Virus record (IMG/VR): IMGVR_UViG_3300045591_000029
Coordinates: 64,001-128,000 of that record
Strand: one strand, 5' to 3'
Length of the DNA stretch: 64,000 nt
DNA from: a virus
Lineage: Duplodnaviria > Heunggongvirae > Uroviricota > Caudoviricetes
How positions within the stretch are numbered: the stretch's first letter is position 1; the number at the start of each line of letters is the position of its first letter. This document shows positions 21,617 through 59,644 of this stretch, piece after piece. The notes beneath the pieces were generated by a model that saw only the letters and a program-made list of their open reading frames with translations, searched no databases and was not told where the DNA came from. The position numbers and the translations under genes are program-made.

Positions 21617-21634
21617 TAAAGGAGGGTTAAAATA

Positions 21635-22663: not shown

Positions 22664-22734
22664 ACTATTCGAGGGGATAGGGATATATCCCTATCCCCTT
22701 TAATTCATTATTTGAGAAAAAGGAGTTTTTAATT

Positions 22735-26379: not shown

Positions 26380-27318
26380 ATGAGATTTGGCGTACGCGAA
26401 ATTTGCGACGTAGCATTCCGTGCTAAGTCTAAGATGACTCTCGGCGGCCGCACTTTCTATAAGAATGAGCCTGTCATTTATTTCGACTCTCTAAAGACTT
26501 CTAGCCTTGAGGGCGCTTCTACCACAGTTTATGCAACTGGTGGACGCGGTAACACTCGTTTGATCGCATGGGAAGGCGAGCGTACTCTCACCTTCAATAT
26601 GGAAGATGCTCTTATTAGTCCTGAGAGCCTGGCCATTCTTTCTGGTGCCGGTTTAGCTACTGCTACTGCCGAAAAGCCTGTTTATGTTCACATGACTTCT
26701 CAGGTTCAGGTAACTGCTAAGAATACTATTGAAATTCCAGAGATTGCTTGCTGGAATGGTACTGCAACTGGTACTCCTAGTACTGGCACTGCAGCTGATT
26801 ACAAGCATGCTAATGCAGATATCTTCTGCATGGTATTAAGCGATTCTGGTACTGTTGATGTTGAACCTTGTGTTCCTGCCGCAGTTGTTTATGGCGATGG
26901 TAAGACCACTATTACCTGCTATGCTGATGGCGCAGCTGGACATAAGGATCTTGAAGTTGGCAAGGTTGTTCTTGTTGACTATTACATCAAGAAGGTTTCC
27001 AACACCATGCTAATTGAAATCACCCCAGAGATTAAGGGTCAGAACTTCTATATTGAAGCTTCCACTCTGTTCCGCGATGAGAATACTGGTCTTGATATGC
27101 CTGCGGAATTTGTAATTCCTAATGGTAAAGTTCAGTCTAACTTCACCTTCTCTATGGCATCTAGCGGTGATCCTTCTACTTTCAGCTTCGTGGTTGACGC
27201 ATTCCCTGGCTATACCAAGTTCGATCTTACCAAGAAAGTTCTTGCTGCTATCCAGGTCGTTATGGATGATGTAGCCGCTGCTGAAGAGAAGAGAGAAGCC
27301 TGCACAGCGGGGGAATAA
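26380..27318 (+). CDS. major tail (tube) protein
   Basis: 312 aa, T/A-rich beta protein, high-expression codon bias, no TAG, upstream of the tape measure gene. Confidence 0.75.
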   Translation: MRFGVREICDVAFRAKSKMTLGGRTFYKNEPVIYFDSLKTSSLEGASTTVYATGGRGNTRLIAWEGERTLTFNMEDALISPESLAILSGAGLATATAEKPVYVHMTSQVQVTAKNTIEIPEIACWNGTATGTPSTGTAADYKHANADIFCMVLSDSGTVDVEPCVPAAVVYGDGKTTITCYADGAAGHKDLEVGKVVLVDYYIKKVSNTMLIEITPEIKGQNFYIEASTLFRDENTGLDMPAEFVIPNGKVQSNFTFSMASSGDPSTFSFVVDAFPGYTKFDLTKKVLAAIQVVMDDVAAAEEKREACTAGE

Positions 27319-29056: not shown

Positions 29057-29590
29057 ATGAAAATGACTTTTACTAAGCTGGGGCTAAAGGCTAAGAAAAT
29101 TACCACCAATTGCCCGCTTACTGACGATATTACGCTTGAAATCCGCAATTATCTTCCTGTTGATGAAAAAGCGGAATTTATTCAATTCATTGTTAATCAT
29201 GCTCTTGATGACATGACCGGTTGTTTTAGCCCTGTAAGAATCGAGGTTTATTTTTCTATTGCTGTATGTAAGTGGTATGCAAATATTACCTTTACAGAGA
29301 AACAAATGACAGAAGTTTCTAAGACTTACGACCTTTTGGAAGAGAATGGCGTGATTGATCAGATTATTTCTACTATTCCAGAGGATGAAATCGAGTTTAT
29401 GAAAGAACTCGTAAATGATACAGTTAGCGATATTGCTAGATATAATTCTTCTGCGGCTGGCATTATTCAGGCTATGACAGCAAATGCAGGTGGATTAGAT
29501 TCACAGATTACTGAAATTTTAGACAAGATTAAGAATGGTGAGAATCTAGAGACTCTGGCCGTAATCAAAGATGTGGTTGGAAAAGATTAA
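29057..29590 (+). CDS. hypothetical protein (possible tail assembly chaperone)
   Basis: Own promoter TTGACA-17-TATAAT at ~28996-29024; lies immediately before the TMP. Confidence 0.55.
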   Translation: MKMTFTKLGLKAKKITTNCPLTDDITLEIRNYLPVDEKAEFIQFIVNHALDDMTGCFSPVRIEVYFSIAVCKWYANITFTEKQMTEVSKTYDLLEENGVIDQIISTIPEDEIEFMKELVNDTVSDIARYNSSAAGIIQAMTANAGGLDSQITEILDKIKNGENLETLAVIKDVVGKD

Positions 29591-29699: not shown

Positions 29700-32600
29700 A
29701 TGGCAAAGCGTCTAAATTATACGATTGGCGTTAATGCTGATACTAGTAAGTTTGAAGCATCTTTGCAAGAGGCTGTCACTAGTCTATAGGCAGTAGGAAC
29801 TAAATCTCAAGTTGTTCCTACTCTATAGAAAGCTTCTACTGCCGCTTTAGATTTAGCTAAGAATCTATAGTCAGCAGTAAATACTAACACTGGTAAATTA
29901 GATTTATCTGTTTTTAATAAAAAATTAGAAGATAGTGGACAAAGTTTAAGGTCATATTATAATCAGATGGTCTAGCTCGGTCCAGCTGGTACAGAGGCAT
30001 TTTTGAAAGTAGCTTCATCTATTACTTAGGCTGAATTACCGTTGCGTAGAACCAATACCCTGATGAACGAATTATGGGTAACTATGAAGAACACAATGCG
30101 TTGGTAGTTAACATCTAGCGTACTGCATGGATTTGTTGGTTCTTTAGAGCAAGCCTATGGGTATTCTAAAAATTTAGATAGATCACTTAATGAAATTCGT
30201 ATTGTAAGTGAGAAATCTGCGGAAGATATGGCCCGTTTTGCTGAATAGGCAAATAAAGCAGCTAAAGCATTAAGTACGACTACGACTAACTATACTGATG
30301 CTTCTTTAATTTACTATCAGCAAGGTTTAACAGATCAAGAGGTACTTGATCGTACAGAAACCACGATCAAGATGGCTAATGTAGCTGGCACAACCGCGGA
30401 AACCGCGTCTCAGCAGTTAACTGCTATTTGGAACAACTTCTATGATGGAAGTTAGAGCCTTGAGCATTATGCTGATGTCATGGTTAAATTAGGTGCGGCG
30501 ACTGCATCTAGTTCTGACGAAATCTCTGAAGGTATCTAGAAGTTTGCAGCTGTGGCTAATACAGTAGGATTAAGCTATGAGTATGCTGCGTCTGCTCTTG
30601 CTACCGTTACTGCACAAACTCGTGAGAGTGCTAGTGTTGTTGGTACTGCATTTAGAACCTTGTTCTCTCGTATTCAGGGTTTGAATCAAGGAGAAACTCT
30701 TGATGACGGAACTACCTTGAATAAGTATTCTCAGGCTCTTGCTACTGTTGGTGTTCAAATTAAGGATACCAATGGAGAACTTAAAGGTATGGACGAAATC
30801 CTCGATGATCTTGGTAGTAGATGGAATACTCTTGCTCAAGATCAGAAGATTGCTCTAGCCGAGACAGTTGCAGGCGTACGCCAATGGACACAGTTAATCG
30901 CATTGATGGATAACTGGAATTTCTTCAAAGAGAATCTAGCTATGGCACAAGATGCAGATGGTACGTTAGAGCAACAAGCCGAGATTTACGCTGAATCTTG
31001 GGAAGCTGCTAGAGATAGAACCAAGGCTGCCGCGGAAGATATTTATGACAGTTTAATCAATCCAGATTTCTACATTAAAGTAGATGATTTGATTACTCCT
31101 TTATTGAGCGGTACAGCTGATGTTATTGATGCTATGGGTGGTATGAATGGCGTATTAGCGGCATCTGTGCTACTAATTAACAAGGTCTATGGAGATAAGA
31201 TTGCTGAAAGCTTGCGAGAGAGTGCTATTCAGATTGGCTTCTTAACTAATCAAGAGTAGGAGAGAGCAAGAGCGCTTCAACAACAAGCTGCTACGCTTGC
31301 CAAAAGCATTTCTATCGAAAAGATGGGTGTTGAAGGTCCTGCAAGAGAGGCTCTAGATATTACACAAAAATAGGTTGAATTGCGTGGGTTAGTTAATTCT
31401 AAGATTGATGAATTAAATGAACGCCAAAAGAGTGTCCTTTAGGCAGACCTTAATCATTTACAGTCTTTGCAAGAACAGTCTAAAGAGTATGCCCGCTAGA
31501 TCACATTAAATGAAGAATTGGCGGCGCAGTATAAGCAAGATATTAAGGATAATATCTCTGTTGATAGTAAAAGTGATATTAACAGATATTTAGGCGGAAG
31601 AAAAGGCAGCGCTAGCAGTGATGTAGTAAAAAATGCAGTTACTGGAGTTCAGGACCTTATTTCTAAGAGTCGTTCTGCGGATGAAGCTATTGCTAGAATA
31701 ATTACCAGATTAGAATCTGTATCTAAGAAGCAAGTGGATTTACGTGCCATCTCTAATAGAATTAAATCTTTAAGCAATGATAGCGATGAGCTAAGCCCTA
31801 AATTAAAAAAAGTTGCTTATGAGATGGGCGGAATTAAACCGGGCGCTTCGGAGCAAGAGATTTTAGATTATTTTACAGACGTTGACAGACAATTAGATGA
31901 TCTAAATGCTCAGTCAACTATCTTGAAAGATACTTTAACTAATTTCTTACCAGAACGTTAGGTTAATCTTGTCGTTAGATTTACAGCCGCTCTTAAAGAA
32001 GGTAAAAGCGCTACAGAAGCTATGGCTTATGTCACCAAAGAGTATGAAGCGGCAAATAAGAAAGTAACAAATAGCCTAGAAACAAACGCTTATGCAACAA
32101 AAGATTGGGCTGATAAGATTGTTTCCGCAGGCACTTATCTTTCTCAATTAGCTATGGCTATGCAAGCATTTAAGAGTATTGGAAATGTTTTCCAAGACTC
32201 TGATATGACTGCAGGAGAGCGTTTAATTACCATCTTCACAAGTTTAGGAATGCTATTACCTACTGTCATTACTTTGACGAAAGCAATGACTGGAGCGACT
32301 CAGCTTGTAACTATTAGTGAAGCTAAGGAAGTTACTGTTAAAGGACTTGGTATCATCGCATCTCTTGCTAAGGCTGCAGCGGATAAAATTCTTGCTAAGG
32401 CTGAAGGCGAAGTAGCAACTGCAACCGCGATAGCGAATGCAGAAATTGTAGCTGGATTAATTGCTTTAGCCTCGTATATTGCTCTTGTTGCCGCTCTCGG
32501 TGTTGCTATTTATGCTTTAGTAAAAGCTTATAATGCTGATGCGGATGCTGCTAAAGAGGCTGCTGCGGGAGTTGAAGTATTAAACAAAGCATATGATGAT

Positions 32601-35600
32601 GCAAAAAATGCTGCTACAGAACTTAAAAATACCATCAATGATTGGGATTCTGCGGTACAGAGCATTGATGATTTAACTGAAGGTACTAAAGAGTATGCAG
32701 ATGCTATTAAAACCGCAAATGATAAAGCTAAAGAGTTAATCGAATCTCAGGGTTTATTTGATCGTTCTAAGTGGTATTATGATGATAAGGGTATTATTCA
32801 ATTCGCGGATGGCGTACTCGAAGAACTATAGTCACAAGCGGACGCACGCGAAAGACAGACTGAAAGCTCCCTTTATACTGGTCAGATTTATTCTGGTAGT
32901 GCGAATATTAAGAGTGAGCGTACAAATGCTAAGAGAAGTTTAATTGGAGACTTTAGATCGCTAAGTGATAATGAACTAGACGCTGCAATGAGTATCCTTG
33001 ATACTCAAGAGCCTCTTTCTCTAGACGAATTTGAGACTGAACTTAAGCGAGTTTTACCTGGATTAGAATTAAGCACAACAAAGCTTGAAGATTTTAGAAC
33101 AGAGCTAGAAACTCTTATTACCTCTACTAAAGATGCTAGTGATGCGAATGACTACTATGCAAAAGAAATTCTCAAGAATAATATTGAAGAAAATCGTAGT
33201 GATGCATTGAAGGATATCGCAGGAGATAGTGAAGGTATCTATAATGGTTTACTTGATGTCTACGCAGCGCGAGAAGCATAGGCACTAGAAGAAAGAGATT
33301 AGGCGCTTTCTAATGTAACGGTTGCAAAAAATAAATATTCTTCCAATAGCGCATTAGGTAGTTATATCGGTCAGTCTATTAATGGAGACGAAGAACTAGC
33401 TAGATTATATGCTAGTATGGTTTTAGGCCGCACCGATGTTGACCAGTTAAACTATAAAGGCGGATGGAATAAGGGCCAACTTCAAACCTCTAGCGGCGAA
33501 AATCTTTTCGATGAAGCACTAAGTGATGATTACATGCGCAAGATGATTGCGCAAACCTATGCTCAATAGGAGCTAATTGACTCACTAGGAGAAGGTTTAG
33601 ATAATTTTGATCAAGATGCTTATGAAGCAAGTCTACAAAAATTAGTGGATGGAGCAAACTCTCTTAGCGATGCATTTGGCGAAGCTGATTTTGCTACAAC
33701 AATTCTTAATCAACTGGCACAAGGCACCGAGTCTATTGATTTAAGCTCTTTATTTGCTCAATTATCTCCTGACGATATTGCTCAACTTACCGGAATGTCA
33801 CAAGAAGAGCTATATGCCACTCTTGGTCTTAATGAAGAAGATTTAGCTAATCTTGGTGTTACAGATGCAGAAGCATGGTATAATAGTTTTATTGCTAGTT
33901 TAAATTCTTACGACCCATCTAGCTTTTATGAGCGTTTAAGTCAAGCTGCGACTTCTGGTGAAAAGAGTGCTAGATCGTTAATTGATAGTATCCAGTCTGG
34001 TGATACTACTTATGAAAATATTAGCGATAATGAAGAATATCAAAATCTAATTGATTAGCTAGATACCCTTAAGAGCCAATACCCGGAACTTCAAGCTGAT
34101 GCAATCGAACTTTCTAATACATGGGAAGTGGGAACATAGAAATTCGCAGAAGCACTTGAAGATGTGTAGGATCGATTAGCGCAAATTAAACTTGACGATT
34201 TAACTAATAATGCAAAAGAAGCTAGCGATAAACTTAAAGATTTCTTAGGCGAGCAAGAGAGTGATTGGGAAGTAAATATTGAAGCCAATCCAGAAGAGTT
34301 TACCACTACAATGGATGAACTATTAGATGCTAACTATGCAGTCGATGTAGAAATCCATACACAAGCTGAATAGGAATTTGATAGCATTAAAAGTGCTATG
34401 CAAAATATCCAAGATGAAGCTTCTAAAATTGGAGAAAACTTTGTAATTGCCGCAACCGATATACGAGAGCTAAATAACACATTCCCCGGTATTATCTAGG
34501 GTATGGAAGATATAGGTGATGGTTCAGTTCGTTTGAACCAGACTATGGTTGAAAGTGCTATTGCCGCAGCACGTGGAGAGGTTGCTGCTGATGGAGAAGC
34601 AACTGTTTCTCGTCTTGAAAATCAAGCAACTTTATTACGTGCTAAACAGCAAGTGTATCAGTAGATGGCAACTGCCGCGGCAGTTCTAGCAGGAGCAGAA
34701 ACAGATTCTGCAATGACTTCTTCTGAGGCATAGGCTACGCTATCTGGTGGTCTATCAGATTTAGAGCAATTAAATAGTAAAGCATCTACTACTGTTAAAT
34801 TAGATAACCAAGAGAAAACAGCGGATTCTGCATATGACAATGGTTTAGTTACTGCTCAAAACTGGGATTCTGCTTTCAGTTCTGCGGCACAGTCTTCTGC
34901 CGAGTTTGCTCGCACCGCTATTGCAAATATGCAAGCTGTTGCTAATAACGACGCTGGAGCTGTTACTGGTGGCAATAATTTTGGCGTTAAATACACTGGT
35001 TCTTCTGGTGTAAGTCAAGAAGCGGCTGTCCTGCAAGACACCTAGAAAATGCTTGATGAAGCTGATACTGTAAGCGAATAGGCTTGGGCAGATCTTGCAG
35101 CGAAGTATCAAAATCTTGCTGATTCCGCAGGTGCCTCTGCTAATGATATTGAGGGTATGATTGCTCAAATTGGTGCTTCTACCACTAATTTGGATAATTT
35201 ATTTGGCAATATTTCTAGCGGAAAAGGATCAAAGGGTTCTGGCGATAGCAAGGGTAAAACTTACGACAAAGAGGACTTAAAGACTCTTCAAGAAGTTGAA
35301 GACCGCTACCACGAGATCAATCGAGAAATCCAGAGACAAGATGACTTGCTTGATGATTTAAGTAACACTACAGATAGGGCTTGGGGAACCGATGCTCTTG
35401 ATGGTTACGAGAATGAAATCAAGGCTCTTGAGAAGCAACAAGAACTTTATAATCAAAAGCTGAAAGAAGCACAAGATTATCTGGTTCAAGACTCTGCCCT
35501 AGTTAAGAAGTATTTTGCAGACGCGCAAATCGGCGCAGATGGCGAAATCACTAACTATGAGGATCTATTAAGAGAGAACCTTAATCTCTATAATGCTGCA

Positions 35601-38417
35601 GTTGAGCGTTATAATCTTGCTGTTGCTGGTAAGACTTTAAGCGAAGAAGAGCATACAGCTCTTAAGAATCAGCTTGATGCAGAGAAGAAACTCTTTGAAC
35701 AGCGCCAGAAAGCACTTGAGCAATATGAAAGCACTCTAGATGTAGTTCGTGATACCACAGATAATATTCAAGAAAATGCTCGTTCTATTGCTGACAAGAA
35801 ACTTGAGGAAATCAAGTTTAAGATGGAGATTGTTCTAGACGTGAAGTCTATGAAAGATGCCGTCAGAGACTTGTCTAAAGAAATTGCTGAAATGTTTGGT
35901 GATGCTTTAACTCATGGTTTTGAAAGTGCTAAATTATCCGCGGAAGGCGCGCAAGCTGAGGCAGCATTACTGCCAAGCTATCAAGAAGAGTGGAATTCTC
36001 TTAAAGAGCTTTACGAAAGCACTACAGATGATGCAGATAGACGAGCCATCATGGATGAAATCAAGAGCTTGCAAGGTAATATCGTGGATTCTGCAAAAGC
36101 TATCGCGGAATGGGCAAACTCTATTGAGGATATTGTTCCAGATGCTGTTGATGCGGCTTCTGAGAGATTTGCAGCATTTACTGATCAGTTAGAGCATAAT
36201 ACTTCTGTACTAGATACTATTAAAGAGCTTTATACTTTACAAGGTGTAACTTATAAGACCGCGGAAGGATTTAATCGTCTCCAAAAGAATAGCCAAGAAA
36301 AGCTAAACGCTTAGTTAGCATCCGCTAAACTGCAAAGAGGTTGGTACGAATAGGCTGCTCAGAGATTAGAGGAAGCGCAAGCAAAACTCGATTCTCTTGG
36401 TGGAGATGAGACCGATTTGCGCTACGATGCTTATAAGAAAGCAAGAGACGCATATCTAGAAGAGTTTAATAAAGCTCAAGAAGCTTATCTATCTTCTGCT
36501 CAAGAGGCAATGGAAACAGCACAAGATATGTATCTCCAGCAAATCGAGAAAGCTGTCTATGAATTTGGTCAAGCGGTATCTAATGGTGTTGGTCTTGACT
36601 TGCTACAAGATAAGTACGATCATTATATTGAGCAAAATGAACGTTACTTTGATAAAGTAAATGAAGCATATCAAGTATCTGCTTGGTATAACAAGCTTCA
36701 ACAAGACATCGACAACACTACCAATTCTGCGCACAAGGAAAGATTAAAAGCTCTCCAAGAGGAAATTAATCAACGCAGAGAAGGCAATAAGCTATCTCAG
36801 TATGACCTTGATATTCTCAATGCTAAATATCAAGTATTACAGGCTCAGATGGCTCTTGAAGATGCTCAAAATGCTAAGAATCAAATTCAGTTAGTAAGAG
36901 ATAGCCAAGGTAACTGGAACTATCAATATACTGCTAACCAAGATGATATTGCTAATGCTCAGCAAAATCTTCTTGACGCAGAGAATGATTGGTATAATAT
37001 CGCTAAACAACAGGTAACTGATGTAACTGGCGAGATTGTTTCTACTTGGAAAGAGTGCTAGGATAAGATTAAAGACATCTATTCTGATATGACACTTACC
37101 GACGAAGAGCGTTCAGCATAGGCCCAAGAAATCTATAAGTATTATAGCGAGAAGATTAAGTACCTCGAAGAGGAAAAACAAAACGCAATCGCTGATATGA
37201 CAGAAGCGGGTAATAAGAACTTAATTGATAATGCAATTATCACAGGCGATACTATTACCGACTTAACTGGTATTACCACAGAAGAATTGAAGCAATTAGT
37301 AGCCGATTCTGGTGAAAGTATTGCTGATATTTTGATGAAGAATAGCGAACAGCTAAAAGAGATTGCGGGCAACAACACCGATCTTATCGACAAGTTCAAT
37401 AATACTTATGCCAAGGATCTTGACGACATGACTCAAAATACAACGAATTTTGAGGATGAACTCCGCAAGTTATTAGATCAAGCACAACGAGATTTTGATA
37501 ACTATAAGGATAAAGTTCAAAATGTCGCCTCTGAAACTGGTACTACTCTTGATAATTTGGCACAAGAAACTGATAAGGTTTCCGAAGCTACGGATCAATT
37601 AAGAGAACGCGGCGATGAAGCTAAGGATACTCTGTGGGATATGATTGATGCAGCTCAAAACGCTTCCGACGGCTATTTAGAGTTAGCGTAGTCTATCTGG
37701 GACACGGTCGAAGCGCTGCAAGCCTTAGCATCTGCGCAGGCCAGTTACGCTGGTTCTAAATCTGGTATGAGTGGCTCTTCTTCTAAGGGCTATGATAAAA
37801 ATACAGATTATGCGGCTATGATTGAACAAGGCTTAATCAATGGTTGGATTGATTATGGTGATGATACCTTTAATAGACTGCTTAATCAGCGTGGCGATAA
37901 GATTACTGGCGAAGGTATGGGTTATACTAACGAAAAAGAACAATTCAGCGGATACCATAAGGGCGATTCCGCGCAAGGTTGGGCTGTTGGTTAGTATGAC
38001 ACCGAGGACGAATGGCGTAAACATCTTGAGAATCTCAAGAAGAATTACGGCTTAAACACTGGTGGATATACTGGTTTGTTTGACGATGCAAAGCTTGCTT
38101 TCCTTCATCAAAAGGAATTGGTGCTAAATCAAAGTGATACCGAGAATATTCTTGCAGCAGTCCAAGCTGTAAGAACTATCGGCACTGATTTGTTTAAGTC
38201 TATTGAGAAATCTCTTGACGGTAATGCGATTGCGGCAATGGCTCTTATGGGTTAGAAGCTCAATCCAGTCGCTACTACACCAATTCAAGATTCTATTGAG
38301 CAAACTGTTCATATTGATAAAGTAGAGTTCCCGAACGTGACTAGCCGCACTGAAATTGAGGAAGCATTTATTAGTCTTACTAATGATGCTGCACAGTGGG
38401 CCAGAAGAAAGACTTAA
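29700..38417 (+). CDS. tail tape measure protein, ~2905 aa (recoded)
   Basis: Nine track fragments (30552-37767) share one frame separated by TAG; TP901-type N-terminal segment (LNEIRIVS...ANKAAKAL); Ala-rich helical body; ends TAA. Confidence 0.85.
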
Positions 38418-48937: not shown

Positions 48938-50857
48938 ATGCAATCTTTCTACGGAGGTCCTGCTGGACAGAGCTTCGAGATTAAAAAGATATTTGAGTCT
49001 TATTACGGTCCTGATGGAGCGCAAGTTGACTTAGATAAAGGATGGGCATCTCCTATCTCTGTGGGCGAATTTGTTATGGTGTCTTATGGCTTGCCATCTG
49101 ACGCTACATACATGACTCGCATGAACTATGACTTAAATGCGGGTGACAAGAAAAACTTAAACTCTACTTTATGGTAGAAAGTATATGACGAGTCTGCGGG
49201 AGAGGGAAGCGGTCTTAGCTATAAGCTCATTTCTTCTTGCACTGGTAATACTCCAAAGATTAGTATTACAAAACCCGCAATCGTGCTTCATGCGAATGAA
49301 CAGCCAGACATTGAAACTGATTTATCTAACCAAGATATGCCAGTTATTCAATTTAAGTTGCCAAGAGCATAGGTATTGTCAATGCCGCAAGAAGCAACCG
49401 TTCTAAATGCGGATGAAAAGCCAAGTGTTGAGTATAACGATGATGATATTGACAATCCAACCTTGCATTTCAATATTCCGCAATCTCAAGTAATTGATTA
49501 GGTTACAGTCGATGTAATTAGTGTTGGAGAAGAACCTAAAGTCAGACTTGACTTAACTGATATTAACCGACCTGTACTTAAATTCCAACTACCTGTAGCT
49601 CAGGAATTTTTAGACAGTAACATTCTTCACGAAGTATTAAATGCTAATGCTGAGCCAACTGTAAGTTTTAGTTATAGCGAAGAAGATACTCTTCACAAGC
49701 ATCCTATCTTGACATTCTCTCTACCTCGTAGCCAAGTAATGGCTGTACCAGAGACGATTACTAGAGCGCCAGACTTTGAGCCTAAAGTAACTGATGTTGG
49801 AACGGTCAATGAACCTAAATTACATTTTGAATTGCCTCGTGCGGTTAAGTTCTATTATGGTAGCTTGTTAGGGCAAAGAACCAATAAAACATATACTCTT
49901 ACCGATCCACTTTTCGCCAATTATGGAGTTGGAGATTACTATATCAATGAAGCTACTGGTTTTATTTATAAAGTAACTAGTAAGACAGATGATACTACTT
50001 GTGTCTTTGAATATCAAGCAAGTATTCAGCAACCGCTACCAGTGGTCAACGCTAGTGCTATCGCTCCTTATATCGAAGGTGACGAAGGATTTAAACCTGC
50101 GGTTCCGCAAGTTGAAAGGACACTAACAAACGCGGAAGGTACCGAATGGCAGCTGGAATTTAAGCTCCCATAGGCTCCGAAGCCCGCAGTTTCTTCTACT
50201 TTTGTTGGTTCGACAGAACAAGGGTCTGTCACTTCTGCTATTACTAGCGAAGATACAGTAACCTTTACTTTTAAGATTCCAACTGGTAGCAAGTTATTCG
50301 CAGGTCTTGAGATTACAGCCGATGGAGCAACTACTACTATTGATGGCGCGAGAATCGGAGATATTTATCTCAATAGTGAGACCGGTGTTTTGTATACTTT
50401 AACCACCAATGGATGGAAAGCTAGTGAGAAGAGTATTAAAGGTCCTGTTGGTGATGCTCTTAATATTGAAGCTGAATACCATTTAACTGAAACTGCGGAG
50501 TTTGCTGCTAGTTTAGCCAATGGTGTCACTTATATTCAGGAACACTATTCTGGTACTATTGATTCTCATAAAATCTTTGCTATTACTTGGGCTTTGCTTG
50601 ATAATGGCGGAGATGTATCTTACTGGTATTATAAAACTAATGCTGGTGAGTGGGATAGAGCGCAATTAACTGGTGGCGTTTCTAGTTTAATTGAGCAGTC
50701 TTACAAGGAAAATGTTGACAATAAGACTTACTCAATCAATTATATTAACTCGCTAATTGGCGGCGATGGAGATACATCAAAAACGGCTTATTCTAAAGAT
50801 TAGGTATAGAGCCTTGTTTCATGGGGATCTTTCCAAGACCTTATAGAAAAGCCTTGA
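48938..50857 (+). CDS. tail fibre-like protein with repeated PxLxFx(I/L)P modules (recoded)
   Basis: About 7 repeats (PVIQFKLP, PTLHFNIP, PVLKFQLP, PILTFSLP, PKLHFELP, QLEFKLP, TFTFKIP); ends TGA. Confidence 0.6.
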
Positions 50858-50876
50858 TTAAAGGGAGGATTTAATA

Positions 50877-51659
50877 ATGGCTTTATTTAAGATTTATAAA
50901 GGTGAGGAAGAACTTCTCACTCAAATTCCCATGCATGAGGGATATGCCTATTTCTGTGAAGATACAGGTAATCTGTTCATTGATATTTCTAATACTACTG
51001 GTGGACGTGTTCAAGTTAACGCATATGCGGCTTCTATTTTGAAGAAAGACACCAAAGAGATTGACATTGATGATATCTTTCTTACTAATATGACTGCTAC
51101 TGTTGCACAGGGTGGCACTGGACAGAAAATTTTAACAGTTAATGCTTTACTGCTCGGTAATGGTACTGATGCAGTTAAGATGGTATCTATCGAGGAAGGT
51201 GCTATTGTAACTGGAAATTCTACTGATGGTGTCTCTGGTCTGTTAGGTACTGGAGCATTATTCGCAGAGGTTTCTGGTGTTCCAAAGTTCGGTACTCTAC
51301 CTATTAAAGCTGGTGGTACCGGTGCTACGACTGCGGCGGCCGCGAGAGCTAACTTAGATGTGTATGGTAAAAGCGAGACAGACAATAAGATGGATGAAGT
51401 AACTACCGTCTCTTATACAGTTACTCTTGCTCAAGCCAACTGGGTACATTCTGGAGATACTTATACCTATTCTTATAGTAATACTAATTTGAAGTGTGGT
51501 AAGAATGGCAATGTGCCTCCAATCATCTCTTGGATTAGTAATCATGATGACTATAACAAGATTGATGATGCACAGGCAACTGTTGGATCTGGTATTACCT
51601 TCACGGCTAGCAAGGCCATTGAGGGAGATATTGAAATCGTCATTATCGACGTAAAATAA
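50877..51659 (+). CDS. tail fibre-associated protein
   Basis: 260 aa, GGTG motifs (VAQGGTG, PIKAGGTGATT), no TAG. Confidence 0.6.
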   Translation: MALFKIYKGEEELLTQIPMHEGYAYFCEDTGNLFIDISNTTGGRVQVNAYAASILKKDTKEIDIDDIFLTNMTATVAQGGTGQKILTVNALLLGNGTDAVKMVSIEEGAIVTGNSTDGVSGLLGTGALFAEVSGVPKFGTLPIKAGGTGATTAAAARANLDVYGKSETDNKMDEVTTVSYTVTLAQANWVHSGDTYTYSYSNTNLKCGKNGNVPPIISWISNHDDYNKIDDAQATVGSGITFTASKAIEGDIEIVIIDVK

Positions 51660-51667
51660 ATAAAAAA

Positions 51668-51710
51668 AAATAGGGGAGAACCTTTTAATTAAGGTTCTCC
51701 CCTATTTTTT
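51668..51710. terminator. bidirectional intrinsic terminator
   Basis: A9-TAGGGGAGAACC-ttttaattaa-GGTTCTCCCCTA-T6 between convergent genes. Confidence 0.85.
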
Positions 51711-51713
51711 GTT

Positions 51714-52163
51714 TTAACGGCAAACTTTGTCTTTAAGATGGTAGTGCGGGATTTCCTCATTAAACCACTTCCAACGAAGATAGTCGTCGAGGAAGATAGC
51801 TATAAGAGCTAATCCGAACCACGCGAATGAGAAAGGAAGACAAATCTGCCCCAATATATTGAAAGGTAAGTTTGAATAGTCCCAAATTCCTAGCTTTAGG
51901 ACTAGATTCAAAATTACGCCGAATACAAATTCAAGTGAGGTAACTATCGCGGCTCCAATAGCCCCTTGTTTAATGATAGACATTTCCCAAGGTATAACCT
52001 CATTTATTTCTCCAATAAGAACGAAACAAAGTCCGCCCAAGAGAAACATTGACCAATGTATCATACCACCACTAATGAAGGTCTTAAACAAGAACTCTAT
52101 AATAAAATAGAGAGAACCTCCAACAGTGAATAAGGTAAGAAACTTATTTAGTTTGGTCTGCAT
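51714..52163 (-). CDS. putative ABC-transporter-permease-like (CmpB/TmpB-type) membrane protein
   Basis: Four TM segments with GGxxYxxIE, HWSMF, WDYSNLPFNILGQIC and W motifs. Confidence 0.65.
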   Translation of the reverse strand: MQTKLNKFLTLFTVGGSLYFIIEFLFKTFISGGMIHWSMFLLGGLCFVLIGEINEVIPWEMSIIKQGAIGAAIVTSLEFVFGVILNLVLKLGIWDYSNLPFNILGQICLPFSFAWFGLALIAIFLDDYLRWKWFNEEIPHYHLKDKVCR

Positions 52164-52809
52164 AATCAAGCTCTACCTGTTCTAGCTCCTCTAAAGAAGC
52201 TGCTCCATAAATAGAGATTTTATACTACTGCATTTGACGATACATTGGATATACAGCCGCAGAGATGGACATAGACAATGCAACAAGATTTTCTAATGTC
52301 CAAGGCTAGCACTCTTCGTGTCGAGCGTGCCATTCCAGAGTTGGAGATTCAATACCTGCCTGAACGGCGATCTGATATTGACTTAAGTTAAGACTAATCT
52401 CAGATTGATCCTCCATTGTAACTCCATATTCTTTTCCATCTGTCCATGTTAATGGATGAGAAGCAAGATACTCTGCGAAAAGTAGCTTGTTCTTCTCTTG
52501 CTTAAGCTCTTTAGCTTCATCTAAACTATAGCGATAAACAAAACTCTGAGTTTCATTATCGAACTTATATAGGTTAGGCGTAACAGTAGATGGAATTTCT
52601 TCAACCTCGATAACGCGAACTGCGTTAGGAGAGTTAATTGTATCAGCTTGGATTAAGACATAATGAGTATCACAATCAGAGCCAATAACCCCAGTGCCTT
52701 CTTCTTCTGAGCAGGCAACGACAATACCATTAGAAGATTGTAGTTTAATGTAACGAAGATTGTCGAGAATATCAACTACAATATTCTCACGATTTAATAA
52801 TACATACAT
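52144..52809 (-). CDS. DUF4376-like tail fibre assembly protein (recoded)
   Basis: Track ORF extends through two TAGs to TAA (221 aa); EDQSEISLNL...WHARHEEC...LEELEQVELDY pattern. Confidence 0.6.
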
Positions 52810-54023
52810 TACTTTATTTCAACTCCTTTGAATAATGAACGAAAATAATTATCCATATCTTGGATAATATAGAAGCTTGAACCTTTAGCGATATGTGCTC
52901 TCCAACCTTGATAAGATTTCTGAATTTCTTCAGTAGGAATTTTACCTTGTTGCCATAGAGCAGCCATTTTACGCAATTTTCTGCGCTAATGCACAATCTT
53001 TTTCTTAAAAGGTATCTAGATTACATGATTTGTAGTAGTTAGATAGAAATTCCATTTAAGATACTTAAATGGAGTACCATGAACCCTATCTTTAGATGCG
53101 ATAGGGGTAATACGCGAGATAGTGGTTTTCTTCTAGTTAAGAGTAAGACCTATATCTTTTAATTTCTTCTCTATCTTAGCTTTACATTCTGCTAAGTATT
53201 TGCTATCGTTACATAGAAGATAAGAGTCATCCATGTAGCGTCCATAATACTTAATATGTAATTCTTCTTTAATGAAATGGTCAACTTCGTTCAAGGCTAG
53301 CAATGCAAACAACTGTGATGTCTGACTTCCTAATCCAAGACTTTTAGCTTCACACTCATAATATTGATGATGCGGTCGGAAAGACTGGATATCCGCAGGT
53401 ATATATTTTCTACCTTTAGCAATATAATACTATTTGCCCGGAATTGGATGCTTATCTTTTGTTAGCTTAAAAGAAAATGTATCAATTAAGTATGAGCATA
53501 ATTCATAGATTTGAGGATCTTTAATAACACGCTTAGCGATTTCTTTAAGAGCCTCATGGTCGATAGAATCAAAGTATTTACGAATATCAATTCGTAAAGT
53601 AAAGAAATCATTTCCTAACCCGTATTCTCTATGAGCCATCTATAAATGTTTCTTTGCTCTTGTTAAAGCAAAATCTATACCTCTATTTTTAAGTGTTGCA
53701 CAGTTATCATAAATAAACTTAGGAGTTAATTCTGGTAATAAGCTCTATTCACATAAAGCATTTTGTACCAGTCTGTCGTTGATATGGCACGCTCTTATAT
53801 CTCGTGGCTTGCCTCGTTCAATGATTGAGAAACAACTAAACACAAGCTACTTGTATTCACAAGCTCGCAAATCAGCTTCTGTTTGTAAGATTGTTTCAAT
53901 TCTATTCTCTTCAAAATTGATTGTACTATCTTTCCATCGAACATTTCGACAAACTCGATAAGAGGAATCATATAATGCGTCAAAACTACAAAAACGCTCG
54001 AAAGATGTCTACTACTAACTCAA
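52809..54023 (-). CDS. DGR reverse transcriptase (404 aa, 10 in-frame TAG)
   Basis: DRLVQ, RGIDFA, IDIRKYFDSIDH, GLGSQTSQ and RYMDD (53226-53237) motifs; TTG start after AAGGAG; adjacent to TR. Confidence 0.92.
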
Positions 54024-54327
54024 CTTCTTTCTCCTTATCATACAGTAATAGCGGTTACTTCGCGAGCTCCGCATCTGTAATCGTATTCATTTATCCGTCG
54101 CAGAGACGAAATAGTCAAGTTCTCCTTAGATGAAAAGGCATCTACCTATAATATACTATTTAATAATATGTTCTATTCCTTCTCCTTCTTAGTCCACAAG
54201 AGTGAACCAATGCATCCAGAATAAACCATAATTAGATGGACAATAATATATTCTGGGGTACTATTCTAGGTGTTGCTCGTCTGCGCTGCTTCGCAGCTTG
54301 ACTTGCAACGTGATAGCTCCATCTAAT

Positions 54328-54427
54328 CCGGCGCGAGGCCATTGCTGTTGTTGTAGTTGTTGTTGTTCGCGTTCCCGTTGTTGTTAACATTGCACACGTT
54401 GTTCGAGTTGTTGTAGTTGCGCGAGCG
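54328..54427 (-). repeat. DGR template repeat (TR)
   Basis: 100 nt, AAC-rich (37 adenines on the coding strand), identical to VR except at adenines. Confidence 0.95.
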
Positions 54428-54459
54428 AAAAATACAGAACTTGACATCTTGTAAAATCA

Positions 54460-54954
54460 TTACCGACCTCTTCTATAACTCTTTGGCTTCTAGTAGGAAT
54501 GCTCGTAGATTAAATAATCTCGATTAACTCTATCCTATAAAGTTTCTTTCATAGCCTTTGTTAAACGAGCAAGATGCTCAAAAGAGCGCCGTTTCTTCTG
54601 GTTAGTCTATGCGTATTCGAAGATACAGAGATCGATTTGACGAAAGATACTGTCGCAATAAGCGATAGCCTAATTCCAATATTTCTTTCGTGCAATTAAA
54701 GTTTCCTAACTATTCAAGTAGATCTCGCTAGCTTGATAGCAGGCGGCATGTATGCCCTTTCCGCATTTGATAATATCTAGCCCGAACGCTTGGAAAGGTT
54801 GTCCCTCTCCAAGCAATCCAGGTTTTTTAATTTGTTTTCCAGATTCGTCAAACTCTCTAGGACGAGTTAAGACTAAAATGTAATTTACCAGTTCGCGTGA
54901 TTTCTAGAGACACTCACGCTTGGATTTATGTCGATCTTTTGTTTTTACAGACAA
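54460..54954 (-). CDS. avd: DGR accessory variability determinant-like protein (164 aa, 6 TAG)
   Basis: TTG start after AAGGAAGG; MSVKTKDRHKS..., basic and helical, located between VR and TR. Confidence 0.7.
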
Positions 54955-55035
54955 AATTAACGCCTTCCTTTCTCATTATTTATATGAGAAAACTGGCTAA
55001 CATTTTAATCTATACTGTCCCACTTTTGAAAGTTT

Positions 55036-56814
55036 TTAATTACCAATGACGAAAGCCGGCGCGAGGCCATAGCTGTTGCTGTAGCTGCCGCGGTTCGCGG
55101 TCCCGTTGCTGTTAACACGGCACACGCGGCTCGAGTTGTTGCAGTAGCGCGAGCGCTCCCATGGATAACCGTAACTACTCGTGGATATATCACCTAAATA
55201 CATGATACGCGTAGCATTACTAGTATAGTAACTATAAGCAAAATTCTTGCCTTGGGTACATTCTGCTTTACTAGTAGAGCTATTAGCAACAGATAATGGA
55301 GAATCAGAATCAAGACCAAATTCTCTTTCTGAAAGTAAGAATACGGTTTCATCATTATAAGTTACATCGCCATTACGAGAACTATTAGTAGATGGACAAG
55401 TGCCTTTTTTAATAGTCTTAATAGAGGCTTTACCGGGAAAAGCGTTATAATAGTTTTGACATAGACTTCTAGCAGTAGAACCAATCCAAACTGCGTTGCT
55501 ACCAAACGCAGTATACTGAGATAAACAGTTTTTAGTCTGGAATGTAACTGTATTATTAGCATCTTGATCTACACCAATAACTCTAATTAAGTGAGTAGTA
55601 GTTCCTAAAACTGCGCTTGAAAGTGTTACAGATTTAGTAGTACCAAGAATAGCACCACCACTACTAGTTTTAATAGACGCGCCACTATGAGATGCAAGAT
55701 AGTTCTTTAATCCGGCAAACCATGCTGCATCAACAGTATCACCATCAGCGCCCCAAGACCAATATTCTGCACTAACAGTAATTGTTTTGTTAGAGGGTGC
55801 AGTATGGTTAGTGCCAGCCGCGACTTTAATCGTAATAGTAGTAGCAGAAACTGGAGTAGAACCATTACCCTTAATAGTAAGAGTATTGCCACTAAGAGAT
55901 AAAGTCAAACCAGAAATACTGGTAGGACTATAACTAATAGCACCATCACCTGCGCGAGTAATAGTAACAGCTACACCGGAACTATAGTTATTACCATTAA
56001 TGGCCACTGTTGTTGGGCTTACATTCAAACTACCTGTTGCTTTATTGATTGTCCAGTTGACATTGATCGCGCTGGTCGTTCCGTCCGCCCAGCGATAATT
56101 GCTTCCTGGTGTAAAGGTAGCAATATAAGTGCCAGCATTAGTTGCAGATGTTGTGTCACCGATAGTCATGTAACTGGTGTTATAGTTATTCCAGTAGCTG
56201 GTGCTACTAACTGACTGCGCGCTTCCAGTATATGTAAGATTACTTTTCCACGTAGGTTTGGCTATAGACTTACGATTGACTGTGACATTAAAAGTCGCAG
56301 TTTGAGTAACTCCATTTTCTGTGTAGCTAATTGTAACTACTTGATTTCCAATAGTTGAAAAAGTTGTTGGAGAACAAGAGTAATCAGTTACAGTTTTAGT
56401 TTGAGAATCGGAATAACTAGCTGTCACTACCATACCCGCGGTAGCAAGAGTATCTCCATACTCATAAGTCAACTTATTGGGTTTAGTAGTTACAGTAATC
56501 GCGGAGAGCCTATGCGTGACTGTGACTGCTAAAGTCGTAGTGCAAGTTTCTCCGCCCTCAGAGTAAGTGATGGTTACGGAAGTAGTACCATCAGCTAAGA
56601 CGCTAGGGGATACAGAATATCCACTAACTTCTGCGGTTGCTAGAACCGCTTGCCCAGTACCATAAGATGCAGTAACGACCATGCCGGCGCTATTGAAGCT
56701 GTCGCCCGCAAGATAGCTGGTCTTAGTAGGCTTAGTGGTGACTTCGATCTTCATAAGAACGATGCCGCTTCCTCCACCTTTTCCGCCTTGCTCAGCTAAA
56801 ATACACTTAGGCAA
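55036..56814 (-). CDS. DGR target: Ig-like-domain adhesin/receptor-binding protein with C-terminal C-type-lectin-like variable domain
   Basis: TTG start after AAGGAGG (592 aa); two TTKPxKxxY...AGMVVTASY Ig-like repeats; C-terminal WERSR..VR..YGLAPAF. Confidence 0.85.
   Translation of the reverse strand: MPKCILAEQGGKGGGSGIVLMKIEVTTKPTKTSYLAGDSFNSAGMVVTASYGTGQAVLATAEVSGYSVSPSVLADGTTSVTITYSEGGETCTTTLAVTVTHRLSAITVTTKPNKLTYEYGDTLATAGMVVTASYSDSQTKTVTDYSCSPTTFSTIGNQVVTISYTENGVTQTATFNVTVNRKSIAKPTWKSNLTYTGSAQSVSSTSYWNNYNTSYMTIGDTTSATNAGTYIATFTPGSNYRWADGTTSAINVNWTINKATGSLNVSPTTVAINGNNYSSGVAVTITRAGDGAISYSPTSISGLTLSLSGNTLTIKGNGSTPVSATTITIKVAAGTNHTAPSNKTITVSAEYWSWGADGDTVDAAWFAGLKNYLASHSGASIKTSSGGAILGTTKSVTLSSAVLGTTTHLIRVIGVDQDANNTVTFQTKNCLSQYTAFGSNAVWIGSTARSLCQNYYNAFPGKASIKTIKKGTCPSTNSSRNGDVTYNDETVFLLSEREFGLDSDSPLSVANSSTSKAECTQGKNFAYSYYTSNATRIMYLGDISTSSYGYPWERSRYCNNSSRVCRVNSNGTANRGSYSNSYGLAPAFVIGN
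55056..55155 (-). repeat. DGR variable repeat (VR)
   Basis: 3' end of the target gene; 16 mismatches to TR, all at TR adenines; shared GC-rich 3' end GGCCTCGCGCCGG. Confidence 0.95.
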
Positions 56815-56869
56815 GATTATAACCTCCTTCGTATCTAGCTCTTTTAAAAATACCAAAAGATTTTCCGAG

Positions 56870-57046
56870 AAAAAGTACACTTTTTTATGGGAAAAATACT
56901 CCCAGAAACTAGATAATAAAAAATTGGGAAAAAGGTATAGAAACCCTTTTCCCTTCAAGTAGGTATCTTACCTTTTCAGATATACATAAAAAACAAGCTA
57001 AGAAAATTATTTATGATTGACCAAAGCCCAGTTAAGTGTACTTTTT
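56870..57046. promoter_or_regulatory. putative invertible segment bounded by 13-bp inverted repeats
   Basis: AAAAAGTACACTT (56870-56882) and AAGTGTACTTTTT (57034-57046); the left site is a palindrome around an asymmetric AC core. Confidence 0.6.
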
Positions 57047-57068
57047 AGAAGATGAAAGGAGAATTAAA

Positions 57069-58354
57069 GTGAGCTTAAAATGTATTTTGCAAGGTCAAGT
57101 AAAAATTACTCCAAATGATTTTGGCCTAGGTACAGAGAATGTTCTATTATGCTTGGATGCGAATGATGCTATATTAAGTGGGTGGTATAGGACAGATAGT
57201 GGCACAGTGAATTTACCTAGTAACCTTAGTACATCTGGAGTTTTATTAGTATCTAGAAGACAAGACAAACGTATATTCCAATAGTATATAGTAATTAACG
57301 GTGGAATAGAGACTGGGACTATGGCGGTACGGACTTCTAGTGGATAGGATGCTATCGTTTGGGACGAATGGGAATTTTTTAATCCTCTTATGAATCAGGG
57401 AGTTGAATATAAGACTATTGAGAGATATCAATCGGCATCATTATATAAAAAAGTAGATGGGGTATTCTTAAATGGCGCCCCGAAGGAGAATCTAATTGGA
57501 AGGCTGTCGCTGAATATATTGGGGCTGTTCGGTATGACGCTAATTAGGAATTATCTGCATCCTCAAAATAGCAAGTACGGAAAAATATGAGTGCGTAGGG
57601 TGGATCATATCTTCATACAGCTCTTTCAAAAATAGGGTGGTATTGTATTATTACTACTACTTCTGACGCTGCTGGATTATTTACTATATATCATCATTAT
57701 GGCAGTGGAGGACCATCATCGCTTAAACTTTTAGTGACTTTTGATTATCACTCTCCTGCTTTAAAGTGTATAGAATGCACTGGAGAAAAATATAATTCAC
57801 AAATCACTAATGTTCGTATGATAAAAACAAGTGATGACAAATATTGTCTTGATGTTTTTTACAATATTAACTATGACCATGATGTAGCTATTGATTTTAT
57901 CAATACTGGCCGATACGAAGTAATTTTACAAGAACCAATATATCTATCGGAGACAGATGATTTATCTGAAGGAGAGACTCTTTTAACTCCAATGGAGTAT
58001 CTCAATCCTCCCATGGAGCTGGGCGTAGAGTATCGCACTACGGAGAGGTATCTTGGTAAGCCGGTGTATGTCAAACTGATAAATTGCGGGAACTTACCCA
58101 ATGGCACAACAAAAGAAGTTGCCCATGGAATTACAAATCTTGATTTTATGGTAGGCGCCCAGGCAATCGCTTCCAATTCAACTAGTGGCTTTAATGGGCA
58201 CACATATCTGCCGGAAATTTATAACGGGTCCTTGACAGATAGATGGACAGACTATCTTGCTGGTATAGACACTAAAAACATCCGCATATTCTGCGGCGGA
58301 TTGGCTGGGTGTCTGGTTTATGTCACATTCAAATATACTAAAACCACAGACTGA
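57069..58354 (+). CDS. second tail fibre/receptor-binding protein, interrupted by a -1 frameshift near 57447-57462
   Basis: GTG start after AAAGGAG; duplicated NPxMxxGVEYxTxERY modules; downstream half lies in the -1 frame. Confidence 0.6.
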
Positions 58355-58366
58355 GGAGGAAACACC

Positions 58367-58966
58367 ATGAAAGTTATCAAGTATCAGCTGTGCACCGAGA
58401 TTAATCACGGCACGGAGGATGAGCCAAATATCGAGCAGGTTTTCTCCGCTGTCACGCTAGGATGGAGCGAGGCAAACGAGACCATCGCCAAGGCCGAAGC
58501 CTACAATGGCGAATATACTGTTGAAGAAGAACTAGATAATCGTCCATTCGAAGAGATTCAAGCTGAAAAATTATCTAATCTCTCAGCAGCTTGCAATCAA
58601 ATCATCGTTGCTGGCATGGATGTAGAAACAACAGAGGGCGTAGAACACTTTAGCCTCGAAGAGACAGACCAAATTAACTTAACGACAGCATTATCCGCAA
58701 TTGAACAAGGAGCCAAGGGATATCCCTACCATGCAGATAAGAAGTTATGCCGTATGTTTACAGCAGTAGAACTCAAGGCAATCGCCGAAAAAGCTACCGC
58801 GCATAAACTATACCACACGACTCTTTGTAATCACCTCTTAATCTTAACAAGACGTGCAACTACAACTGCGGAATTAGATAAAATTACTTATTCTGCGGAT
58901 TGCCTTCCTCCTGATCTCGTGGAGAACATGAAGAAGATTCTAGTCGCGGCGGGGATTACTGAATAA
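58367..58966 (+). CDS. DUF4376-like tail fibre assembly protein
   Basis: AEKLSNLSAACNQII...FSLEETDQINL...YHADKKLC...AELDKITY. Confidence 0.65.
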   Translation: MKVIKYQLCTEINHGTEDEPNIEQVFSAVTLGWSEANETIAKAEAYNGEYTVEEELDNRPFEEIQAEKLSNLSAACNQIIVAGMDVETTEGVEHFSLEETDQINLTTALSAIEQGAKGYPYHADKKLCRMFTAVELKAIAEKATAHKLYHTTLCNHLLILTRRATTTAELDKITYSADCLPPDLVENMKKILVAAGITE

Positions 58967-59038
58967 TTTTACCAAAAAATTTGGCAAAGTTGTTAAATCA
59001 ACTTTGCCAAATTTTCATTATATAATGAGGTGATAAAG

Positions 59039-59644
<606 letters not shown>

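Follow-up and report, generated by a model that had tools for sequence, protein, structure and literature searches.

A 64,000-nucleotide stretch of phage DNA (the window) carries a DGR cassette that is very probably a complete, canonical, BPP-1-type system and currently active. Its host genome is that of a TAG-recoded, siphovirus-like phage of ~139 kb (138.8-kb genome) with a 2905-residue tape measure. All parts of the cassette are present, its genes are under purifying selection with low dN/dS, its VR is diverse in natural populations specifically at adenine sites, and VR follows TR. Target with VR, avd, TR and RT are co-oriented in this order on the minus strand, as an earlier reading made from the letters alone (the sequence-only reading) had described in likening them to BPP-1. 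The cassette is a fresh example of a DGR type already described, including in recoded phages; a megablast comparison with phage records gave no match. The 138.8-kb genome contains one VR, and a search across it for a second VR or a second target found none. The cassette and its repeats are laid out as follows.

55036-56814, minus strand: DGR target gene, 592 codons without TAG, with VR at its 3' end
55053-55155, minus strand: VR, 103 nt, the last 34 codons but six of the target
55070-55146: adenine-templated variable part of VR
55056-55068: IMH-like, GC-only block of 13 nt in VR
54460-54954, minus strand: avd, 164 codons including six TAG, encoding a divergent four-helix bundle of the bAvd family
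54325-54427, minus strand: TR, 103 nt with 38 A, non-coding, between avd and RT
54024-54324, minus strand: TR-RT spacer, ~300 nt, presumed part of the DGR RNA, with three conserved helices
52809-54023, minus strand: DGR RT, 404 codons including 10 in-frame TAG (RVT_1, 1e-15)

ORF coverage rose from 68% to 97% once TAG was read through. In alignments with relatives, TAG stood opposite Gln 46 times, including in the conserved SQ motif, and opposite any other residue at most 16 times. A tRNA with the anticodon CTA is present among the 31 tRNA genes of the genome. Judged from these codon comparisons, TAG is glutamine in this phage (genetic code 15). A serine assignment, raised by the long variable arm and G discriminator that ARAGORN reported for the tRNA(CUA), was rejected, as the comparison with relatives favours Gln. 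Both RT and avd are fragmented under code 11 by their 10 and six TAG codons, and the claim that they are invisible in the standard code was borne out.

TR and VR form a direct repeat on the minus strand at a distance of 728 nt. Over the 103 aligned nucleotides there are 17 mismatches, 17/17 at TR adenines (TR>VR: A>G 10, A>C 5 and A>T 2), with a chance probability of ~4e-8 (binomial) or 2.5e-9 (hypergeometric), and the adenine-only pattern also holds in relatives. The sequence-only reading had counted 16 differences in 100 nt, all at TR adenines, and 37 adenines in TR, mostly in AAC codons. The adenine specificity and the codon bias both stand (15 AAC and two AAT in the VR frame), while the counts become 17 in 103 nt and 38, the discrepancies lying at the 3' edge only. 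The 17th mismatch (TR A, VR C, directly after the GC-rich block) is a boundary difference rather than a product of mutagenesis, because the same base occurs in 9/9 VRs compared. The 13-nt GC-only block closes both repeats, and the sequence past it differs (A-T-T-A-G in TR, C-T-T-T-C in VR), a split that relatives share. The target stop codon lies 17 nt beyond the VR end. No hairpin or cruciform was found downstream of VR, where the fold of the 121 nt from the VR end was no better than shuffles (z -0.58); such a hairpin is not universal in DGRs.

Activity was assessed with cross-sample contigs from nine near-identical genomes and, in a second comparison, with 115 target variants. Among the nine genomes TR was constant, whereas VR was variable at 35/38 adenine sites versus 1/65 other sites, and the lone non-adenine change co-varied with TR. 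TR of the present genome has a T where its 98%-identical sisters have C, and its own VR has the matching T; TR-to-VR transfer therefore postdates the split of these lineages in at least one of them. By entropy, the 115 target variants showed strong variation only at codons with an adenine in TR, and contig breaks fell inside VR. The apparent activity proposed earlier can thus be upgraded to activity in this lineage: between-sample differences in VR are confined to TR-adenine sites, and at the one non-adenine change VR tracks TR.

The RT probably starts at a TTG at 54023, with AAGGAG 7 nt upstream, and the next codons are AGT and three TAG. Its motifs YFDSIDH, LGSQTSQ and YMDD are intact, and the latter two are invariant in nine relatives of 57–88% identity. 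Among solved structures its best relative is the BPP-1 bRT (8ub7_A, 1.3e-12), with group II intron RTs behind it, and the enzyme is DGR-type with intact catalytic motifs. Compared with the BPP-1 RT, ~40 extra residues lie between YFDSIDH and LGSQTSQ. Direct family searches with Avd gave nothing meaningful in Pfam, NCBIfam, PHROGs or PDB sequence profiles. Its hhalign comparison with the single Shimadzu Avd reached 15–33%, which is suggestive only, with a collinear alignment, and profile-profile comparison with bAvd-family proteins from distant DGRs reached 99%. Because of this profile match and the predicted four-helix fold, Avd is placed in the bAvd family (PF22296 / PF05635 fold), so that the Avd called earlier is indeed there, recognisable only through profile-profile and fold comparison. 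It has an insertion of ~25 residues (roughly 30–54) between helices 1 and 2, and its subfamily comprised only 26 cluster representatives in 1.84 billion.

The three helices of the spacer are located as follows.

54317-54326 with 54126-54135: P1, long-range helix starting at the last bases of TR
54272-54309: P2, hairpin
54042-54078: P3, hairpin directly before the RT ribosome-binding site

In these helices 90–99% of cells were paired, compared with 21–58% with slid partners, and compensatory changes occurred in 6, 10 and 8 pairs of P1, P2 and P3, respectively. No Rfam family was found for the spacer; an RNA model for this clade could be built from the three covarying helices.

Two features support TTG 56814 as the target start, an AAGGAGG site located 8 nt upstream and the conservation of the N-terminal peptide in relatives. 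From N- to C-terminus the protein comprises this short peptide (PKCIL...GGKGGGS), two Big_3 Ig-like domains (3.8e-14), further beta-rich domains and DUF6273 (1.3e-12, residues 424–590), which may resemble C-type lectin folds such as those of the DGR variable proteins Mtd, TvpA and TaqVP; the lectin-like C-terminal domain on an Ig-like stalk had been anticipated. The only Foldseek match of the target domain in the PDB was the DUF6273 domain of 9qa6, and the score for Mtd was poor. The lectin-like DUF6273 has already been described as a domain targeted by DGRs (PMC10743442; PMC11792537). The idea that the target is deliberately free of TAG was rejected, given just 10 Gln codons (P ~0.05) and targets with 1–6 TAG in relatives.

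Downstream of RT, the minus-strand operon continues to a shared terminator.

52144-52809, minus strand: gene of 221 codons, its ATG overlapping the stop codon of RT (TAATG), with a weak DUF4376 (fibre-assembly-like) match
51714-52160, minus strand: membrane protein of 148 codons (PF06541; phrog_20274), the final gene of the operon
51665-51710: bidirectional terminator with a 20-bp stem, common to the DGR operon and the convergent tail-fibre gene 50877-51659

In relatives with RT identity as low as 62%, the 221-codon gene stays adjacent to RT, and it may have a role in the DGR cassette. On the other side, the DGR operon lies directly downstream of a 177-bp segment (56870-57046) whose ends are perfect 13-nt inverted repeats, and a serine recombinase gene is nearby. 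The segment upstream of the target was in the inverted orientation in 0/35 loci.

It is very improbable that the cassette in this genome is a relic in which homing has been lost, with the VR diversity made earlier or in sister strains. The evidence of VR diversity does come from between-sample contigs, and one published recoded phage lost its DGR by a deletion within the RT (10.1101/2023.08.07.552389). Here, however, the RT, Avd and TR are intact, as are the spacer helices and the GC-rich block, dN/dS is low, and the T common to TR and VR, against C in the sisters, places a transfer after the split in at least one lineage. The earlier reading had named a VR uniform across samples together with a dead RT as the mark of a relic; VR is heterogeneous and the RT motifs are intact. 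The target protein could be a Hoc-like decoration or adhesin for mucus or glycans, its Ig-like domains carrying a lectin-like tip, rather than a receptor-binding fibre, with the DGR tuning adherence and not host range; we regard this as possible but rather doubtful. A match to phrog_10993 'Hoc-like head decoration' (3.4e-9) was obtained for the C-terminal domain, and published proteins combining DUF6273 with Ig-like domains have been likened to Hoc, with binding of host or intestinal glycans proposed (PMC10743442, PMC11792537, 10.64898/2026.05.08.723808). Against this, though not decisively, the target gene closes the tail and tail-fibre module, and its N-terminal KCIL peptide recurs in the gene that opens the divergent fibre-like operon, which suggests a shared docking site on the tail for the two proteins.

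The TAG codons of RT and avd, in particular the RT start TTG-AGT-TAG-TAG-TAG, might be a selected gate that limits hypermutation to a suppressor-tRNA-rich phase, a reading we consider quite unlikely. TAG takes 45–50% of Gln positions in RT and avd compared with a window average of 25.5%, and the triple TAG is kept in 27/27 sequences of a near-identical sublineage. Nearly all genes in the window contain TAG, however, and relatives with RT identity of at most 77% start RT at ATG with 0–1 TAG near the N-terminus, carrying 3–13 TAG per whole RT and 1–3 per avd. Nor is the TAG-free target significant, with its 10 Gln codons and TAG-containing counterparts. A broader proposal, that hypermutation is under two phage-specific controls, the 177-bp segment switching adhesin and mutator and the triple-TAG RT start depending on suppressor tRNA, is likewise speculative and in our judgement unlikely. 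If true, adhesin and mutator would be switched on or off together, in alternation with a fibre operon that is fixed and has the same N-terminal docking peptide, and RT output would depend steeply on the suppressor-tRNA level.

For the active BPP-1-type cassette we propose the following mechanism. The operon (target, avd, TR with spacer, RT) would be transcribed from the minus strand, and Avd and RT would be made only while TAG is decoded as glutamine by the phage tRNA(CUA). The TR-spacer RNA would fold into the conserved helices, be bound by an RT-Avd complex and be reverse-transcribed with random misincorporation opposite adenines, the binding and the priming from the spacer being modelled on BPP-1. 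By the same model, the cDNA would replace VR at the target 3' end, with the GC-rich block and differing flank setting the TR-to-VR direction. Randomisation would affect 17 Asn-templated positions, and more weakly two Tyr and one Ser, across the final 34 residues of the DUF6273 domain, allowing ~6e21 possible protein variants. This domain would be borne on the Ig-like part of an adhesin at the virion surface, whose gene neighbours those for the tail fibres, and by analogy the VR surface is expected to bind a ligand.

The cassette leaves knowledge of how DGRs work unchanged; it offers sequence evidence on a population scale for a working DGR, with sense TAG codons in its genes, in a large and widespread gut phage. 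Two of its three protein genes are overlooked by standard-code annotation and by family libraries; code 15 is advisable for DGR finders, and recognition of this Avd subfamily needs profile-profile comparison or fold evidence.

Gene order and orientation are the same as in the BPP-1 DGR (mtd-avd-TR-Sp-brt; bAvd 4DWL; RT-Avd-RNA particle 8UB7). Also shared are the VR at the target 3' end, adenine-specific TR/VR differences, the GC-rich block ending both repeats, a structured TR-RT spacer, an RT with GxxxSQ and YMDD, and an Avd four-helix bundle. By contrast, the RT here is only remotely similar in sequence and has the ~40 extra residues, and the 164-residue Avd carries an inserted hairpin. The spacer spans ~300 nt, folding downstream of VR revealed no hairpin, Ig-like domains plus DUF6273 take the place of Mtd as target, and sense TAG codons occur in both RT and avd.

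Within the phage record collection, the RTs nearest to this one (26–35% identity) come from DGRs that target DUF6273 proteins in phages of gut Firmicutes (Faecalibacterium phages Lelie, Toutatis and Brigit, Roseburia phage Shimadzu, and phages nd4 and nd12 with their 'tentaclins'). They likewise have Ig-like repeats and VR at the C-terminal end of the DUF6273 lectin-like domain, and the Shimadzu Avd aligns collinearly with Avd here. Their RTs are at most 35% identical and their genomes are 33–60 kb, compared with the 139-kb TAG=Gln phage here; Shimadzu and the Faecalibacterium phages integrate as prophages, and in the tentaclins the lectin-like domain is N-terminal rather than C-terminal.

DGRs with TAG-bearing RT genes have been published for recoded gut phages, namely three persisting infant-gut phages (10.1101/2023.08.07.552389) and Zeta crAss-like phages (PMC12386605). 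As here, these have in-frame TAG in the RT gene, a cassette that standard-code annotation misses, and a tail-protein target whose C-terminal VR changes over time or between samples. The RT printed for the infant-gut phages is unrelated in detail to the present one. The lineage described here differs in being siphovirus-like, with its 2905-residue tape measure, rather than crAss-like, in having an Avd, and in activity documented over >100 variants.

Within 50000-59000, a repeat finder returned a single repeat family, comprising 54325-54427 and 55053-55155 with a spacing of 728 nt. The first copy is the template repeat (TR) of a diversity-generating retroelement (DGR) and the second its variable repeat (VR), which lies at the 3' end of the target gene, encoding Ig-like domains and a C-terminal DUF6273 domain. 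The cassette, read with TAG as Gln (code 15), comprises the following features.

Features of the DGR cassette
55036-56814, minus strand, target gene, 592 codons without TAG
54460-54954, minus strand, avd, a 164-codon ORF with 6 TAG
54325-54427, minus strand, TR, the repeat copy between avd and RT
52809-54023, minus strand, reverse transcriptase (RT) gene with 10 TAG

Read on the minus strand, the TR is rich in adenine (38 of 103 nt) and, in the target-gene frame, contains 15 AAC and two AAT codons, as the sequence-only reading had stated in placing its adenines mostly in AAC codons. That reading had also found every TR/VR difference to lie at a TR adenine, which holds for 17/17 (A>G 10, A>C 5, A>T 2; chance of all falling on A, ~4e-8); its figures of 100 nt, 16 differences and 37 adenines describe the same repeat with the last three bases left off. 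The 17th difference lies directly past a 13-nt GC-only block and, because its base is identical in every VR compared, was assigned to the TR/VR boundary rather than to mutagenesis. At this boundary position the TR of one of the eight near-identical contigs described below (L007:4615-4717) has C, the VR state, instead of A; either a point mutation or a rare conversion of TR by VR may account for this. A search of the whole genome revealed one VR only, and no hairpin was found directly downstream of it.

Activity was assessed by comparing contigs from public assemblies of different samples. Eight contigs from different samples encoded one identical RT protein, 98% identical to that of the window, and shared a constant TR that differed from the window TR at one position (C for T). 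All nine VRs (eight contigs and the window) differed from one another, with variation at 35 of 38 adenine positions vs 1 of 65 other positions, bearing out the earlier view that the DGR is apparently active. The sole variable non-adenine position was the T/C site, and there the VR and TR of each genome carried the same base; the VR thus copies the TR, and TR-to-VR transfer has happened since the 98%-identical lineages split. Approximately half of the adenines were changed in the nine genomes (A>G 112, A>C 48, A>T 27). Across the 4.3-kb region, variable sites outside the VR numbered ≤12 per 100 nt and usually <8, vs 24 and 15 in the two bins holding the VR.

In a set of 115 target variants (114 protein-database sequences and the window's own), entropy was 1.9-3.2 bits at the 17 Asn-templated positions, 0.26-0.69 bits at two TAC and one AGC positions, and ~0 at the positions interleaved with templated ones. 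Relatives with 59-88% RT identity each had their own TR, from which the VR differed at adenines only. Of the 14 contigs ending within the upstream flank, six started within the 103-nt VR and one more started 21 nt before it; such breaks are expected from within-sample VR polymorphism and are indirect evidence of it.

The window is clearly recoded: with TAG read through, long ORFs covered 97% of it rather than 68%, and a tape-measure gene emerged (29700-38417, 2905 codons, 34 TAG). A tape measure of this length implies a very long non-contractile tail, and hence that the phage is not crAss-like. The window spans 64001-128000 of one 138,828-bp contig (G000:C1), among whose 31 tRNA genes is one with the anticodon CTA (G000:C1:49146-49236, 91 nt, 14.8 kb before the window). 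As drawn by ARAGORN, this tRNA had a G discriminator, a long variable arm and no pairing at position 1-72, a shape odd for a Gln acceptor; because of the arm and discriminator, the meaning of TAG was tested by codon comparison. Opposite TAG of the phage or a relative, other genomes showed Gln 46 times and any other residue ≤16 times, with CAA commoner than CAG, and both Gln of the invariant RT SQ motif were TAG in two relatives. TAG therefore stands for Gln, despite the tRNA shape.

Head/tail genes in 20936-23280, 26380-27318 and 29057-29590, including the likely major capsid gene (21635-22663), were free of TAG and wrote Gln nearly always as CAG (15 CAG, 1 CAA, 0 TAG), whereas the remaining window favours CAA and TAG; codons that depend on suppression may be avoided in highly expressed genes. 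TAG occupied 45-50% of Gln positions in RT and avd vs a window average of 25.5%. We considered TAG as a selected gate on the DGR and found no good evidence for it beyond the phage's general suppressor-tRNA dependence: the triple TAG at the RT start was kept only within the near-identical sublineage, lineages with ≤77% RT identity having an ATG start and 0-1 TAG at the same place, and the lack of TAG in the target was not significant, and relatives' targets do carry it.

The RT matched RVT_1 (1e-15) and phrog_1423 (1.9e-83). Among solved structures its best relative was the DGR RT (bRT) of Bordetella phage BPP-1 from the ribonucleoprotein 8UB7 (1.3e-12); RTs of group II introns and retrons ranked lower. 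LGSQTSQLFAL aligned on the corresponding bRT motif and YMDD on YMDD; LGSQTSQ, YMDD and YFDSIDH were invariant across nine relatives (57-88% RT identity), and dN/dS vs relatives was 0.07-0.11. Between YFDSIDH and LGSQTSQ (window 53280-53490, residues ~180-243), bRT has ~40 fewer residues than this RT, the extra residues being conserved across the clade. The nearest RTs among sequenced phage records were ≤35% identical and belonged to phage nd12, Roseburia phage Shimadzu and Faecalibacterium phages, all DGR carriers. The RT start is most likely TTG 54023, which has AAGGAG 7 nt upstream, lines up with the Met at which relatives begin and precedes an AGT codon and a run of three TAG codons; the alternative ATG 54074 sits within a conserved RNA hairpin. 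A 221-codon gene (52144-52809), whose start codon overlaps the RT stop codon (TAATG), adjoins RT in relatives with RT identities as low as 62%. Its only match, to DUF4376, was weak (E 0.05), and its product may help in fibre assembly or be a cassette component that has gone unrecognised.

The 164-codon Avd had no match in Pfam, NCBIfam or PHROGs, and its profile found nothing among PDB sequences. When 1.84 billion cluster representatives were searched exhaustively with the profile, 26 only were retrieved, many of them fragments broken at TAG. The protein was kept in relatives at 44-73% identity, with a dN/dS of 0.012 vs the 98% lineage, and by its conservation the ORF is judged a real gene. 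The AlphaFold model (14 sequences, pLDDT 88) was a bundle of four helices, the first two of which are separated by an inserted short beta hairpin. Foldseek ranked 2RLD and 2GSC at the top for this model, both of the 23S-rRNA-IVP/Avd fold family. As helical bundles easily score high in Foldseek, a sequence link was sought using Avd-position ORFs from 15 distant IMG/VR DGR cassettes (RT 31-38% identical), 9/15 of which matched the Pfam family of the BPP-1 Avd (bAvd, PF22296; best 3.6e-8). Their profile aligned with that of the window Avd over 136 columns (99.0% probability, E 6.8e-18), identifying the protein as a divergent bAvd with an insertion.

Aligning the spacer between the TR 3' end and the start of RT across 12 lineages supported three helices.

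Helices in the TR-RT spacer
54317-54326 with 54126-54135, minus strand, P1, long-range helix whose 5' strand starts at the last TR bases
54272-54309, minus strand, P2, hairpin
54042-54078, minus strand, P3, hairpin

In P1-P3, 90-99% of cells were paired vs 21-58% with partners slid by 1-3 columns, and compensatory changes were found at 6, 10 and 8 pairs, respectively. The spacer RNA matched no Rfam family. By analogy with BPP-1, this segment of the DGR RNA would both position and prime cDNA synthesis.

The target start is assigned to TTG 56814, which has AAGGAGG 8 nt upstream and adds an N-terminal peptide conserved in relatives, one of which lacks Met at the position picked by the gene callers for this phage. 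In Faecalibacterium phages and phages nd4 and nd12, DUF6273 has been described as a C-lectin-like DGR target whose C-terminal end holds the VR (PMC10743442, PMC11792537). The target gene ends the portal-to-tail-fibre module and is convergent with the tail-fibre gene, with a bidirectional terminator common to both; its product may be a receptor-binding fibre or a Hoc-like decoration. A K-C-I-L peptide opens both the target (56790-56814, M-P-K-C-I-L-A-E-Q) and the first gene of the divergent operon (57069-57095, M-S-L-K-C-I-L-Q-G-Q), and may be a docking motif for alternative fibres. Between the target gene and this fibre-like operon sits a 177-bp segment (56870-57046) flanked by perfect 13-nt inverted repeats (56870-56882 and 57034-57046), and a serine recombinase gene lies at 59030-59644 (Resolvase, 1.3e-28). 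The segment was in the window orientation in 35/35 related loci examined, and its inversion was not seen. Three metagenome-contig proteins (P0150, P0151 and P0156; 847-872 residues) carry two or three tandem domain copies 44-59% identical to the target DUF6273.

The cassette has every defining DGR feature tested except the optional VR-proximal hairpin. Its additions to DGR knowledge are modest: a divergent Avd subfamily, covarying spacer helices and population-scale proof of activity. DGRs whose RT genes contain in-frame TAG, as in this cassette, have been described in recoded phages of the infant gut, where the VR changed over three years (10.1101/2023.08.07.552389), and in Zeta crAss-like phages (PMC12386605).
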